Assembly (NCBI GenBank): GCA_903831825.1
Contig: CAIKZE010000219.1
Coordinates: 2,025 to 66,024, forward strand
Direction: 5' to 3'
Length of the DNA stretch: 64,000 nucleotides
Source: an uncultured Lentisphaeria bacterium
GTDB lineage: Bacteria > Verrucomicrobiota > Lentisphaeria > Victivallales > Victivallaceae
The first letter of the stretch is position 1; every line of letters begins with the position of its first letter. The translations under genes and the position numbers were made by a program. This document shows positions 7,965 through 62,903 of the stretch, in pieces. The notes beneath the pieces were generated by a model that had not been told where the DNA came from, made no database searches, and saw only the letters and a list, made by a program, of their open reading frames with translations.

Positions 7965-9350
7965 TTAACGACTTAACCGGCGGCACCGGAGCTTTATAAC
8001 TACAGAGGCACAAAGACACAGGGAAAGCATTTTCTCCATTTTGGGCAGCCGACTCCGAGATTTTAGAGAGCCGTTGAGCAGAAGCATTGCCGGCATGGGA
8101 AGTATGGGAAGCATGGGAAGTTCCGACATTTCCGAGTGCTTAGAGAGCTCTTGAGCAGAGGCCGTGTCAGCATAGCCAGCCGGGCAACCGTCCGACTCCG
8201 AGCTTTTGGAGAGTGTTTTAGCAGAGACCTCATCGGATTTTCCGTCGACACTCCCATACTTCCCATACTTCCCATACTTCCCATTATTCCCATCGTCTTT
8301 CAAGATTCCCGAGCCATTAGAGAGCTCTTGAGCAGAGGCTGTTTTGCCCATGCGGCCAGCATAGCCAGCCGGGCAACCGCCCATTTCCGAGTAATTAGAG
8401 AGTGCTTGAGCAGATGTTTAAGCAAATTTCCCATTATTCCCATTATTCCCATCATTCCCATCGGCATTTACCATACCATAGCATAGCACATTCCCGAGAT
8501 GTTGGAGACCGCTTTTAGCTTGCTGTTATTTTGTTTTCCACTTTTCTCGCTTTTCTCGCTTTTTCATTTCCGAGTGTTGGAGAGCCGTTGAGCAGAACCG
8601 TTTTTACTCACTTTTCCGACGGCTGGTTAAGTTTTTCGTTAATAAATTTCAATTTTGTCATTTTGGACATCCTGGACAGTGCTTGAGCAGAAAAAAGTTG
8701 AATAATGTCCAACATCTCCGAGACTTTGGAGACCCGTTCAGCACAACGGTTTTAATTTTTAATAAGATTTTCAAACAACATTTACGACATCTGGTTAAGA
8801 TTTTCGTTAACTGATCCGCAGTCGCGGGAGACCACCGTCCGAGACGGACGACACTATAACAAAACCCATTTTGGACACCGCTTCCCCATATTTTGGACAC
8901 ATGTTCCGGTGTAGTGCCCTCTCTCTGAGAGGGTGGTTCCGGATCCACCGTCCGAGACGGACGGCACTACAACAAAACCCATTTTGGACACCGCTTCCCC
9001 ATATTTTGGACACATGTTGTGCAGTCTCGCCCGGGACTCCGAGCTTTAGAGACATCTCCAGTATGGCGTTTTTGCCAAAAACGCCTCTCTTTGCCGGTTT
9101 TGGCAAAACTGGCATACAATTTTTCTTTCCAACATTTCCGAGGTTTTAGAGTCCTATTGAACACAATCCTTTTCTTCCACGAATTGCTCGAATGGACACG
9201 AAGAAAACCAAATTCGCGATAATCCGTGTAATTAGTGGATATAAAATCCCATTTTAAAAATTATAAGTTTTGTCTTCGTTTTCAGGATTTATTCTGAATT
9301 CTGACTCCTGAATTCTGACTCCTGAATTCTGACTCCTGAATTCTGACTTC
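7965..9350. repeat. Mosaic intergenic repeat array A
   Basis: About 11 degenerate copies of a 30-nt motif (ttccgag-N-ttagagag-N-ttgagcaga) separated by micro-repeat fillers. Fillers include 9-mers of TCCCATACT type in both orientations, a 22-mer x2, a 73-nt unit x2 at 8833-8905 and 8946-9018, and a 14-mer x4. No credible gene. Confidence 0.85.
9296..9350. repeat. 14-bp tandem repeat gaattctgactcct, about 3.9 copies
   Basis: Direct reading gives units at 9296, 9310, 9324 and 9338. Sits immediately before the 147-bp repeat copy A. Confidence 0.9.
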
Positions 9351-17482: not shown

Positions 17483-17676
17483 AATATCCAATATCCAACA
17501 CGGAATATCTCGCACAAAGACGCAAAGGCACAAAGAAAAGTAAAACTTGCCATTGTTTTTCTCTCCGTGTCTTCGTGCGAGAAGATGTTCAGCTTTTTGT
17601 ATTCTGCCTTTCCTTCCTCAGTTGGATATTTCCCGCTTCGCGGGATCCCGCCTTGCGGGACGAGATATTGGATATT
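17483..17676. repeat. MITE-like element bounded by a 13-bp perfect inverted repeat
   Basis: AATATCCAATATC (17483-17495) pairs with GATATTGGATATT (17664-17676). The interior carries CACAAAGA-type 8-mers, two small GC hairpins (cccgc-ttc-gcggg, tcccgc-ctt-gcggga) and a segment resembling 9520-9585. Confidence 0.55.
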
Positions 17677-59056: not shown

Positions 59057-60937
59057 TTAAAGGTCCGGAATCTTCAACTGTTTCTCTTTCGGCGTCCACA
59101 TGATTTCCTGCTGGATGCTCATTGACGCCGGAAACTTATGAACATTCTGATAGCGGCTGGATAACGCCAGCAGCGTATAAGGCGAGAACAGGAACGTGTA
59201 CGGCTGTTCTTCATGCAGCAGCCGGTGAAACTGGAAGCACAATTCGACCCGTTTCTTGTGGTCAAAAGTTACTCTCAATTCATCAATAATCCGGTCGGCT
59301 TCGGCGTTCTTGAACCCGTAATTGCTGCTGAACGGTTTGTCGGCTTCGCTGGAATGCCAGAGCTGATAGAGGTCGGGCTCGTAAGCGATTGTCCAGCGAA
59401 GCGTGCAGGCGTCAAAATCCTTTTGCTCCAGTCGCTGTAAATACACGGACCATTCCAGGATCTGAATTTTCATTTGGACTCCGCCTTTGGCCATGTCTTC
59501 CTTGATCAACGGCAGCATTTTCTCCTGAAGAGAGCTGTTCGCCACCTGCAAGATGGTAAACTCAAACTTTTTGCCGTCTTTTTCGAGGACTCCGTCGCCG
59601 TCAATATCTTTCCAGCCGGCTTCCGCCAGCAGGGCTTTGGCTTTTTCAACATTAAATTCATAGGGCTTGATGCTCTTGTCATAATAGGGGCTGTCGTAGT
59701 AAAGCGGTCCGGTCACAATCTCACCCAGCCCGAAATACGCGTCTTTCAAAATTTTTTCCTTGTCCACCAGACATGACAGCGCCTGGCGCACCCGCTTGTC
59801 CTGAAACAGCGGATTATGCAAATTGTAACCGACATAGGCAAATGTCCTGGAAAGATATTTCAGTTTACTCAGCTTGCCGTTTGGACCAAATTCCGGAATA
59901 TCAGTGCGGTTCCTCCACTGTTCCGGCAGCAAGTCCATCCGGTCAATTCCTCCGGAAAGCAGCGATTGAAAACAGGTGTTCGGATGTTTGATAATTTCAA
60001 ATGCTGTATATTTTATTGGCGGCGCAATGCCAAGTTTATCGCCGAAAAAGTTCTCATAGCGGGAGAGAACCACCCGGCGGTCCTTATCCCAGCGCAGCAG
60101 CCGGTACGGGCCGCAACCGACAATCATCCGGTTCCGCTGATGGTCGTCGTTAAACTTTTTCGCGTCAAACGGACCTGCATAGGCATGGTACAAATGTTTG
60201 GGCAGCGGACTTAAGCCGAGAGTCAGTTCCAGCGATTGATAATACGGCATCTTCCAGTAAACCTTGAATTCATAATCAGAGAGAACTTCAATTTTTTCAA
60301 GGTCTTTGTAATAGACCCGCATCGAAGCGCAATTGGTGTCCGGATCATTTATCACATCCGCATAGAATTTAAAATCCCGGGCGGTTACTTCTTTGTTTTT
60401 CCATTCTTTCCCGGTTACCGGGTCGGTGAAGTCCTGCCAGGTGATGCCTTTTCTCAGCTTGATCGAGTAGATTTTTTTATCCGGTGAAATCGTCCAGCTT
60501 TCCGCCATCAGCGGTTCAAATATCTCCGGTTTTTCAAAATTGCGGTCAGCCAGCGACGAATTACAAAACCCGTTTATCAAACTTACAGTGTAGTCGTTAT
60601 TGATTAAAGGATTCATATTGCCGACATCGGCGGAGATGGAAGTAATAATCCGGTCGCCGGGCGTGGCGTTCCGGTCGTAAAACTCCAAATTGGATATTTT
60701 CTCCGGAGATTTTTCTTCTGCCGTCGCGCTTGCCGGTTGAACCGCAGTAGCCGCCGCCGCAGTCATTCCTTTATTCTTCATTTGCTGCAGCGTGTCACTC
60801 ATTTCCGACAACTTTTTCTGCATGTCCATATAATCAAAATGCACCCGGTCAACCGCGTTGATCAGAATCACGCCCAACAGAATCACCGCCATGACCAGGA
60901 TCGTGGCAATTATATTCAAATAAAAGTTTCGATTCAT
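59057..60937 (-). CDS. ABC transporter substrate-binding protein, family 5 (Opp/Dpp-like), N-terminal TM anchor
   Basis: 626-aa ORF with an N-terminal hydrophobic anchor and an SBP_bac_5-like body (WTISPDKKIYSIKLRKGITWQD). Confidence 0.75.
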   Translation of the reverse strand: MNRNFYLNIIATILVMAVILLGVILINAVDRVHFDYMDMQKKLSEMSDTLQQMKNKGMTAAAATAVQPASATAEEKSPEKISNLEFYDRNATPGDRIITSISADVGNMNPLINNDYTVSLINGFCNSSLADRNFEKPEIFEPLMAESWTISPDKKIYSIKLRKGITWQDFTDPVTGKEWKNKEVTARDFKFYADVINDPDTNCASMRVYYKDLEKIEVLSDYEFKVYWKMPYYQSLELTLGLSPLPKHLYHAYAGPFDAKKFNDDHQRNRMIVGCGPYRLLRWDKDRRVVLSRYENFFGDKLGIAPPIKYTAFEIIKHPNTCFQSLLSGGIDRMDLLPEQWRNRTDIPEFGPNGKLSKLKYLSRTFAYVGYNLHNPLFQDKRVRQALSCLVDKEKILKDAYFGLGEIVTGPLYYDSPYYDKSIKPYEFNVEKAKALLAEAGWKDIDGDGVLEKDGKKFEFTILQVANSSLQEKMLPLIKEDMAKGGVQMKIQILEWSVYLQRLEQKDFDACTLRWTIAYEPDLYQLWHSSEADKPFSSNYGFKNAEADRIIDELRVTFDHKKRVELCFQFHRLLHEEQPYTFLFSPYTLLALSSRYQNVHKFPASMSIQQEIMWTPKEKQLKIPDL

Positions 60938-61027
60938 AATTTAATGCCTCTTTGTGCTCCGCGTTAATCGTTTCCACATAATATACCTCCCTGCATGAAT
61001 TTGAAAACCGGAAATAAAAAAATTCCG

Positions 61028-62160
61028 TTATGATACTGGCCATCTGAACAACAGAATACCGTTCCCATAATTCCCATTCCTCTCATAATTTTCCTTCTTT
61101 GCTTTCCGGCCCATGCAGCCAGTCACCGCAACATTTTGGACACCGGCACGCTTCCCGCAGTTGCGGGTGACGCCACCGTCCGAGACAGACAGGTCGGACA
61201 CCCGCCTCCCACATTTTGGACACCGCCTCGTAGATTCTGGACACTCGACTCCGAGTCGTTGGAGTGTCCTTGTGCGGAACGGTTCCGGTGTAGTGTTCTC
61301 GCTCTGCGAGAGAGGTTCCGGTCTGCCGTCCGAGACGGACGGCGCTACAACAAAGCCATTTTGGACACCCCGTCCGAGACGGACGGCACTACACCAAAGC
61401 CATTTTGGACACCCCCGTCCGAGACGGACGGCGCTACACCAAAGCCATTTTGGACACCCCCGTCCGAGACGGACGGCGCTACACCAAAGCCATTTTGGAC
61501 ACCCCCGTCCGAGACGGACGGCACTACAACAAAGCCGCGTCTTGGACATCCTCTGAGCATATTTTGGACACATGTGCCCACTCCCATTCTCCCCATTCTT
61601 CCCATCAGTCTTAAAAAACATTTTGGACATTTTGGACACTTGTTGTGCAAGACCGTTTTTCCTTTTTTCACAATTCACCAGTTACCATTCACATTCTTTA
61701 CATTTCCGAGATTTTGGAGACCGCTTTGAGGCTGTTGTTATTTTGTTTTCTCATTTTCAATTCTCAATTTTCCATTTTCAATTGTGTGTCCGGTTAAGAT
61801 TTTCGTTAACTGATACCATTTTTGCCTTCCGTTCCAGTCCGACCATTTTGGACACCACATCCCCTCATTTGGGACAGGTCGGACTAGTCGGACAGCTCGG
61901 ACACCCGCCTCGCAGATTCTGGACATCCCCGCGCCTCATCTTGGACACTGGCTCCACTCAACGGTTTTATGAGACTTATGGGGGCGCCTATGATTTTAGA
62001 CACAACTCCGTATCCTTCCCATTCTTCCCATCGGCATTGGCCGATAGCATCGCGCATTTCCGAGACATAGAGAGCCATTGAACAGAACGGTTTCATTTTT
62101 CAACTATTCACCAGTCACCTAATTGTCTCTACATATATAGTGATTTTGTCAATAAGAACG
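61028..62160. repeat. Mosaic intergenic repeat array B, paralogous to array A
   Basis: Shares modules with array A. The 23-mer ggttaagattttcgttaactgat is identical at 8793 and 61791. About 60 nt starting catt(c/t)ccgagat(g/t)ttggagaccgc are ~85% identical by hand alignment between 8488 and 61699. ttcccatcggcatt, the ccgtccgagacggacgg hairpins, ttttggaca words and TCCCAT micro-repeats also recur. Confidence 0.85.
61325..61548 (+). repeat. Five tandem 44-45-bp units, each a 7-bp-stem hairpin plus a ctacaMcaaagccattttggacacc tail
   Basis: Units start at 61325, 61369, 61414, 61459 and 61504. The last unit has a diverged tail. Confidence 0.9.
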
Positions 62161-62315
62161 GAGAGAACAGGCTCGAATAAAGCTTTTTCCCGGCACATTA
62201 TTTTTGCAGCCGGAATGAACTATTTCTGTAAAATAATTAATTTGCCAGTTGAAAATGAATCAATAATAAGTTATTATTAAGATATAACATAATTAAATAG
62301 TGTAATATAATAATA

Positions 62316-62903
62316 ATGAAACCTATTGACGAAGAACGGCTTTATCAGGCGTTGAAATTACTGGAGGAACTTCTGGGAATCGCCCATGCCCCGCATTTTG
62401 AATTGGTCATCTGCGGCGGTTCGGCGTTGATTGCTACCGGGCTGGTCCGCAGAACCACCAGGGATGTGGATGTTGTGGCGATGCTCAAGGGAGATATGGA
62501 ATTAGCCGATCCGGAGCCGTTTCCGGCCATACTTGAACAGGCGGCACGGAAGGTTGCGGCCAGCCTTGGCTTGCCGCACGATTGGCTGAATTGCGGCCCA
62601 TGCGACCTTTTTCGCATGGGACTGCCGGAAGGATTTGTCGGGCGTCTGGAAAAACATGGCATTGGGCCATGCCTGACAGTCCATTTTATCGGCAGACTGG
62701 ATCAGATTCATTTCAAACTATACGCTTCAGTTGATCGCGGCGGGTATCATATTGATGATCTGTTGGCCTTGCACCCAGCCGACGAGGAACTGGTTGCCGC
62801 TGCTCAATGGTCAATGAGCCATGATGTCTCGGAAGGATATGTGCTGCTGTTAAAAGAACTGTTACGGAGAATTGGCTATGGCAATGCCGCCGAAAGAATT
62901 TAG
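62316..62903 (+). CDS. Minimal nucleotidyltransferase-fold protein (DUF6036/AbiEii-like)
   Basis: 195-aa ORF. VICGGSALIATGLVRRTTRDVDVVA fits the GS...DxD NTase motif. AT-rich upstream region. Confidence 0.5.
   Translation: MKPIDEERLYQALKLLEELLGIAHAPHFELVICGGSALIATGLVRRTTRDVDVVAMLKGDMELADPEPFPAILEQAARKVAASLGLPHDWLNCGPCDLFRMGLPEGFVGRLEKHGIGPCLTVHFIGRLDQIHFKLYASVDRGGYHIDDLLALHPADEELVAAAQWSMSHDVSEGYVLLLKELLRRIGYGNAAERI

Follow-up and report, generated by a model that had tools for sequence, protein, structure and literature searches.

GTAG-tagged REP hairpins and a candidate RAYT partner gene in an uncultured Kiritimatiellales-type bacterium

Hairpin units and arrays in the window

The window, the whole stretch of 64,000 nucleotides analysed here, corresponds to C219:2025-66024 of a 5.9-Mb assembly (506 contigs, 47% G+C). 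It carries two arrays of small hairpin modules, each lying between divergent genes, with solute-binding proteins to the left and accessory genes to the right. One array contains a head-to-tail repeat that TRF places at 61326-61536 (period 45, 4.7 copies, 96% matches), bearing out the original prediction of a five-fold tandem hairpin with a 44-45 nt period; reading of the sequence adds that the tail of the fifth copy is degenerate. The repeated hairpin, CCGTCCG-AGA-CGGACGG, is found exactly at 61326, 61370, 61415, 61460, 61505 and 8948, with one mismatch at 8835 and with two at 61176, and its 14 strand-hits compare with 0.11 expected by chance. The identical copy and the altered copy in the first array, together with a disrupted variant near 61175-61200, had all been picked out from the letters, and each was recovered. 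A second module is common to both arrays, in which its stems differ and are each fully compensated. This, too, had been predicted, albeit with coordinates that were off by 7 and 2 bases: the hairpins lie at 8917-8933, not 8910-8926, and at 61296-61312, not 61295-61309. When folded as DNA, the units form the stems predicted for them, at z-scores of -2.7 to -4.7 relative to shuffled sequences.

On its proper strand, each REP unit comprises 23 nt: GTAG and the dinucleotide YG, then a 7-bp stem closed by a loop of 3 nt that is mostly TCT. Type b lies on the strand opposite to type a and its variant a'. The features of the window are as follows.

8835-8857, minus strand: REP type b, stem weakened by a change of its last base, tag CTAT for CTAC
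8911-8933, plus strand: REP type a, GTAG-TG-CCCTCTC-TCT-GAGAGGG, hairpin 8917-8933
8948-8970, minus strand: REP type b, partner of 8911-8933 in the inverted pair 8911-8970, supported by folding
61176-61192, minus strand: decayed REP-b (CCGTCCGAGACAGACAG), from the mismatch search
61290-61312, plus strand: REP type a', a minor variant, GTAG-TG-TTCTCGC-TCT-GCGAGAG, hairpin 61296-61312; assigned on the CTCTCGC stem type, the dominant type in congeneric genomes
61326-61348, minus strand: REP type b, copy 1, top strand CCGTCCG-AGA-CGGACGG-CG-CTAC, from exact match and folding
61290-61312 with 61326-61348: inverted pair of a' and b (copy 1), GTAG outside
61370-61392, minus strand: REP type b, tandem copy 2, from TRF and exact match
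61415-61437, minus strand: REP type b, tandem copy 3, from TRF and exact match
61460-61482, minus strand: REP type b, tandem copy 4, from TRF and exact match
61505-61527, minus strand: REP type b, tandem copy 5, with the degenerate tail, from exact match
61326-61536, no strand assigned: head-to-tail array of 44-45 nt period, unit REP-b, ACAMCAAAGCC, CATTTTGGACACC, from TRF
61357-61368, plus strand: CATTTTGGACAC tail motif, first of four in the array (others at 61401, 61446 and 61491)

Five open reading frames span the window arrays and none has a Pfam match, on which ground we reject the arrays as protein-coding repeats.

Several other modules share these regions. The CATTTTGGACAC motif occupies 8660-9013 and 61133-62002, strictly in one orientation per array, and microsatellites and further modules with small hairpins are found in such one-directional arrays too. 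For example, the module (GA)CTCCGAG-N4-TTGGAG(TC)..CGTTGAGCAGA, at 8054-8600, 61250-61265, 61705-61720 and 62060-62086, has its own 5-6-bp hairpin without a GTAG tag. A 9-mer microsatellite, (GTCGGACAG)n, stands in the place of the REP-b hairpin directly before CGCTACAAT at 61872-61903, C121:~4830 and C330:~12741, as if one arm of REP-b had been expanded. The small hairpins at 17483-17676 had been described as being of the same style; they exist, but belong to a different and separately dispersed repeat with copies on C7, C25, C37, C6 and C55. Inverted AATATCCAATATCC repeats mark the limits of that repeat; it has twin CCCGC-N3-GCGGG hairpins and lacks a GTAG tag. Across the genome, the CCCGC-N3/4-GCGGG hairpin is found at about 270-280 sites (553 strand hits), which fall into several contexts.

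A dispersed family with compensated stems

An nhmmer search of the genome, using a profile built from six copies, identified 157 REP units on 71 contigs. An unbiased scan for GTAG-N2 followed by a perfect 7-bp stem and a 3-nt loop returned 141 perfect hairpins, compared with 1-5 for each of six control tetranucleotides, and all but six of these matches (135/141) fall into three stem types: CCGTCCG (89), CCCTCTC (43) and CTCTCGC (3). About half of the 157 are "full" units, reading GTTCCGGT-GTAG-YG, stem a, a linker of ~12 nt that takes three recurrent forms, stem b, and CR-CTAC-AACAAAACC; the remainder are type b alone with the CTAC end. Approximately 59 units form inverted two-type pairs with GTAG outside, and type b is additionally seen as singletons and in head-to-tail arrays. 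Judged by midpoint, 13% of REP units lie in open frames of at least 200 codons, even though such frames make up 80% of the genome. The units are thus high-copy, dispersed and mostly extragenic repeats. They also break short-read assemblies of the genus, with 53% of units lying within 1 kb of a contig end versus 17% of random positions. The family is present in 4/4 congeneric genomes.

To what extent the stems covary can be judged from an alignment of 100 distinct full units, drawn from this genome, the four congeners and one other genus (two units), in which pairs were counted in three helices. The GTAG columns are at least 87% conserved. Stem a is 96.7% paired and two of its positions are split, one between U-A (47) and C-G (45) and the other between G-C (49) and U-A (48). 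Two master haplotypes account for the compensated pairs: CCCTCTC, dominant in this genome and present in both other-genus units, and CTCTCGC, dominant in the congeners. Single-sided variants are rare, and there is one more compensated type, TTCCCGC/GCGGGAA. Stem b hardly varies (98% paired), apart from the compensated TCGTCCG/CGGACGA in a few units. The compensation is genuine, but since the compensated pairs derive from two master stem types it represents few events. The original prediction that covariation marks a selected structure therefore stands in part. Hairpin shape, rather than stem sequence, is preserved, as the three stem types share GTAG-N2, 7 bp and TCT; the weaker parts of the claim are the small number of events, the near-invariance of stem b and the behaviour of the outer arms.

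These outer arms, GTAGYG and CRCTAC, could pair with one another, but their variable Y/R position lacks covariation (Fisher p = 0.25) and another of their positions shows a mismatch in 79% of units. On both counts we reject a three-way junction with a selected outer stem: the apparent stem is a by-product of two inverted GTAGYG tags and not a selected fold. Since the outer arms do not covary, the pairs are BIME-like, with two REP types alternating in inverted orientation, rather than REPINs.

The REPtron on C280 and competing readings

A domain search found Y1 transposase domains at nine places in the genome. One of them is a RAYT gene on another contig, outside the window (C280:22447-22914), which encodes a 156-aa protein and is bordered by the very hairpins described above: three REP-a (GTAG-YG-CCCTCTC-TCT-GAGAGGG, plus strand) directly upstream and nine inverted REP-b (CCGTCCG-AGA-CGGACGG-CR-CTAC, minus strand, period 34 nt) downstream. 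The protein scores 98.6 bits against NF047646 REP_Tyr_transpos, an NCBI curated equivalog model with a cut-off of 80, and 33.4 bits against the IS200 model, under its cut-off of 55. Its sole PDB match is 4ER8, the E. coli TnpA-REP (E = 9e-12), with which both the HuH motif (PEHIHFF) and the Y..NP tyrosine motif (YVRQNPVRAGLV) align. Only one copy of the gene exists. The closest paralogue, on C170, shares 41% identity with it and has another palindrome at its flanks, and C298 carries a third RAYT-like gene with yet other palindromes beside it. As candidate partners, the remaining Y1 genes (on C413, C379, C427, C162, C248, C284, C298 and C170) were set aside, none being directly flanked by REP-a or REP-b; several have different palindromes of their own.

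In a REPtron, one full-length tnpA-REP gene per REP type is flanked by its REPs, and it is the REPs, not the gene, that are mobilised (PMC6006769). By its gene and flanks, the C280 locus is a classic REPtron and the C280 gene the predicted cognate RAYT. The suggestion that a transposase encoded elsewhere binds the hairpins has thereby gained a located gene, with binding itself presumed by homology with the E. coli enzyme. An IS200/IS605 insertion sequence is ruled out, because the gene is single copy, more than 100 hairpins occur without it, and the IS200 model scores under its cut-off.

What was observed, namely the anatomy of the repeats, their number and position outside genes, the REPtron and the protein's membership of the RAYT family, makes it very probable that the hairpins are GTAG-tagged REPs spread and maintained by the cognate C280 RAYT, with the tandem array a local amplification. 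Acting like its E. coli homologue TnpA-REP, the RAYT would bind a REP folded as a single-stranded DNA hairpin, recognising the stem by its shape together with the GTAG tag, and would then cut and rejoin DNA so as to spread and maintain the family. An enzyme that reads tag and shape would leave the stem free to change only by paired substitutions, giving a new master type. The five-copy array of 45-nt units would be a recent head-to-tail amplification of one REP-b together with ~22 nt of flank, most likely by slippage or unequal exchange. Other head-to-tail runs of REP-b exist, on C338 (3 copies, period 44) and beside the RAYT gene (the 9 copies of period 34, without the tail), and the array regions are full of 9-mer microsatellites. 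One feature is not predicted by a simple transposition model: within arrays, every REP-b is co-oriented with the CATTTTGGACAC motif.

The units could instead be primarily RNA elements—small RNAs, or terminating or stabilising stem-loops—subject to RNA-level selection, with the transposase link incidental, although we regard this as very unlikely. Hairpins with 3-nt loops and G-T-tolerant stems can fold as RNA also, REPs elsewhere have been reported as mRNA stabilisers or terminators (PMC3733652), and the array units all share the orientation of the downstream gene. However, both window arrays lie between divergent genes, and so upstream rather than downstream of coding regions; the stems have no following T-run; and single-sided changes are of the wobble and the non-wobble kind in roughly equal numbers. 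A known Rfam RNA family is rejected: the curated covariance models match nothing in the whole window at the gathering threshold, and nothing in 60900-62320 at E <= 1. In addition, the conserved unpaired GTAG tag and the REPtron provide an explanation at the level of DNA. While the original prediction had allowed for RNA as the selected structure, nothing points to it.

A different view takes the tail of the tandem unit, rather than its hairpin, as the functional part. The CATTTTGGACAC 12-mer, which makes up half of the tandem unit, is a distinct motif, specific to the genus and present in about 400-490 copies. Counted as ATTTTGGACA, it occurs 490 times in the genome, with 22 nt, or two turns, the commonest spacing (77 times), and only 89 copies adjoin and follow a REP-b; counted as CATTTTGGACA, there are 397 copies here and 425 in a congener, versus at most 15 in each of 39 genomes from other genera of the family. 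The unit might accordingly be a binding-site array for a genus-specific protein that recognises CATTTTGGACAC, with a regulatory or architectural role upstream of accessory genes and the REPs as passengers. The motif is, moreover, always co-oriented with a conserved junction (x45) that precedes diverse genes. We nonetheless hold this reading, too, to be very unlikely. No candidate binding protein for CATTTTGGACAC was identified, the absence of the motif from the RAYT-proximal REPs on C280 means that the hairpins themselves are left unexplained, and a selfish or slippage-prone repeat would equally well be restricted to the genus, reach high copy and break assemblies. Two further roles for the tail were rejected: that of a REP part, because it is absent beside the RAYT gene, and that of a broadly conserved regulatory site, because it is confined to the genus. 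For its part, the REP/RAYT model leaves the tail half unexplained, given this absence and the 89/490 copies that lie beside a REP.

The junction itself, AATTGTCC-CTACATATATAGTRATTTTGTCAAYA, ends mosaic arrays at 62101-62152 of the window and at 44 other places (e.g. C248, C90 and C60). At these 45 copies a 7-8-mer microsatellite precedes it, and CATTTTGGACA motifs are always upstream on the same strand; the CTACATATATAGTRATTTTGTCAAYA part contains an inverted CTAC...GTAG. The diverse genes downstream include toxin-antitoxin components, Fic, Vsr and other nucleases or accessory genes, LacI/GntR regulators and a RAYT-like gene. There is a small chance that CATTTTGGACAC arrays ending at CTACATATATAGTRATTTTGTCAAYA constitute an undescribed cassette-leader or protein-loading array, possibly recruiting Y1 enzymes, and are not mere repeat debris.

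Relatives, known systems and significance

All four congeners carry the REPs, and other REPtrons with other stems are also present among them. A protein search (E <= 1e-10) covering G001, G003 and G004 did not find the cognate RAYT; the congener MAGs have a completeness of 91-96% and their assemblies break at repeats, so the gene may have been missed. At the position syntenic to C280, G001 and G002 have no RAYT, and in G004 the contig ends there. Among 185,579 species genomes, the closest RAYT relatives are in a MAG at 45% identity and a Kiritimatiellales MAG at 37%. The 45%-identical RAYT has on either side hairpins made of GTGTAG-C, a stem of 8 bp and a TGT or TGC loop, in two inverted stem types (CACGCTTC and CGCGGCTC) that are unrelated to the CCCTCTC and CCGTCCG stems. 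Tag, geometry and two-type inverted layout are thus conserved with the enzyme, while the letters of the stem are free.

The genome holds at least three further Y1/RAYT genes (C170:26474-27103, C298:34196-35266 and C427:33122-33607), each flanked by its own, different palindromes, and the congener loci L033, L034 and L041 add more Y1/RAYT genes of the same description. The palindromes include GGTTATG..CATAACC, GCCAATC-GGGA-GATTGGC, GTAG-C-AACGGATT and GTAG-CGCAGGCA-TTCC; at C298 the repeats extend into the reading frame. As each of these genes has palindromes of its own, several REP-RAYT systems coexist.

The E. coli REP/BIME system with its TnpA-REP (RayT/YafM; 4ER8) provides a ready comparison. 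In both, a GTAG tag stands 5' of a short hairpin; as in BIMEs, two inverted REP types alternate with few recurrent linkers, in high copy and outside genes; and as in the E. coli REPtron, a single-copy HuH/Y1 gene that passes the same NCBIfam equivalog model is flanked by its own REPs. The stems here, at 7 bp with a 3-nt loop, are shorter than those of E. coli REPs, pair perfectly without a bulge and are unrelated to them in sequence; the units sit inside long one-directional mosaic arrays with other short motifs, and the host is a Kiritimatiellales-type PVC bacterium.

The GTAG REPs surveyed by Di Nocera et al. (2013) have stems of 5-13 bp, short loops, frequent clusters and a RAYT association; their clusters consist of units tandemly reiterated with flanking DNA, GTAG-outside pairs predominate, and they are known in the PVC superphylum, including GTAG-20 of Opitutus terrae (Verrucomicrobia) (PMC3733652). 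Likened by description to this super-family of 24 published families, the present units agree in stem and loop size, clusters, outward GTAG pairs and RAYT. An unpaired dinucleotide between tag and stem, as seen here, occurs there only in GTAG-1 and GTAG-2, and the present host group is not among the hosts listed (PMC3733652).

REPINs of Pseudomonas fluorescens, described by Bertels and Rainey (2011), are likewise two inverted REPs with a short spacer, in high copy and with a single-copy RAYT (PMC3116915). The two halves here, however, have different, non-complementary stems (CCCTCTC or CTCTCGC versus CCGTCCG), so that no one long hairpin arises and only the GTAGYG heads can pair, without covariation; for these reasons the pairs are not REPINs. 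A likeness in layout, a ~45-nt module reiterated head to tail, is found with BOX of Streptococcus pneumoniae, a modular intergenic repeat in which boxB (~45 nt) is reiterated head to tail in variable number. BOX is not known to have a GTAG tag or a RAYT partner.

A full-text literature search for papers that combine 'repetitive extragenic palindrom*' with 'Kiritimatiell*' came back empty. The hairpins, their compensatory changes and the tandem array are very probably explained as a standard REP/RAYT system: an ordinary REP family with its RAYT in the same genome, and so a new example of a well-known system in a little-studied group. The Kiritimatiellales-type lineage would thereby join the hosts of REP/RAYT systems. 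Because several distinct REP-RAYT pairs stand side by side in this genome and its congeners, the genus may prove a natural test bed for the specificity of enzyme for hairpin.
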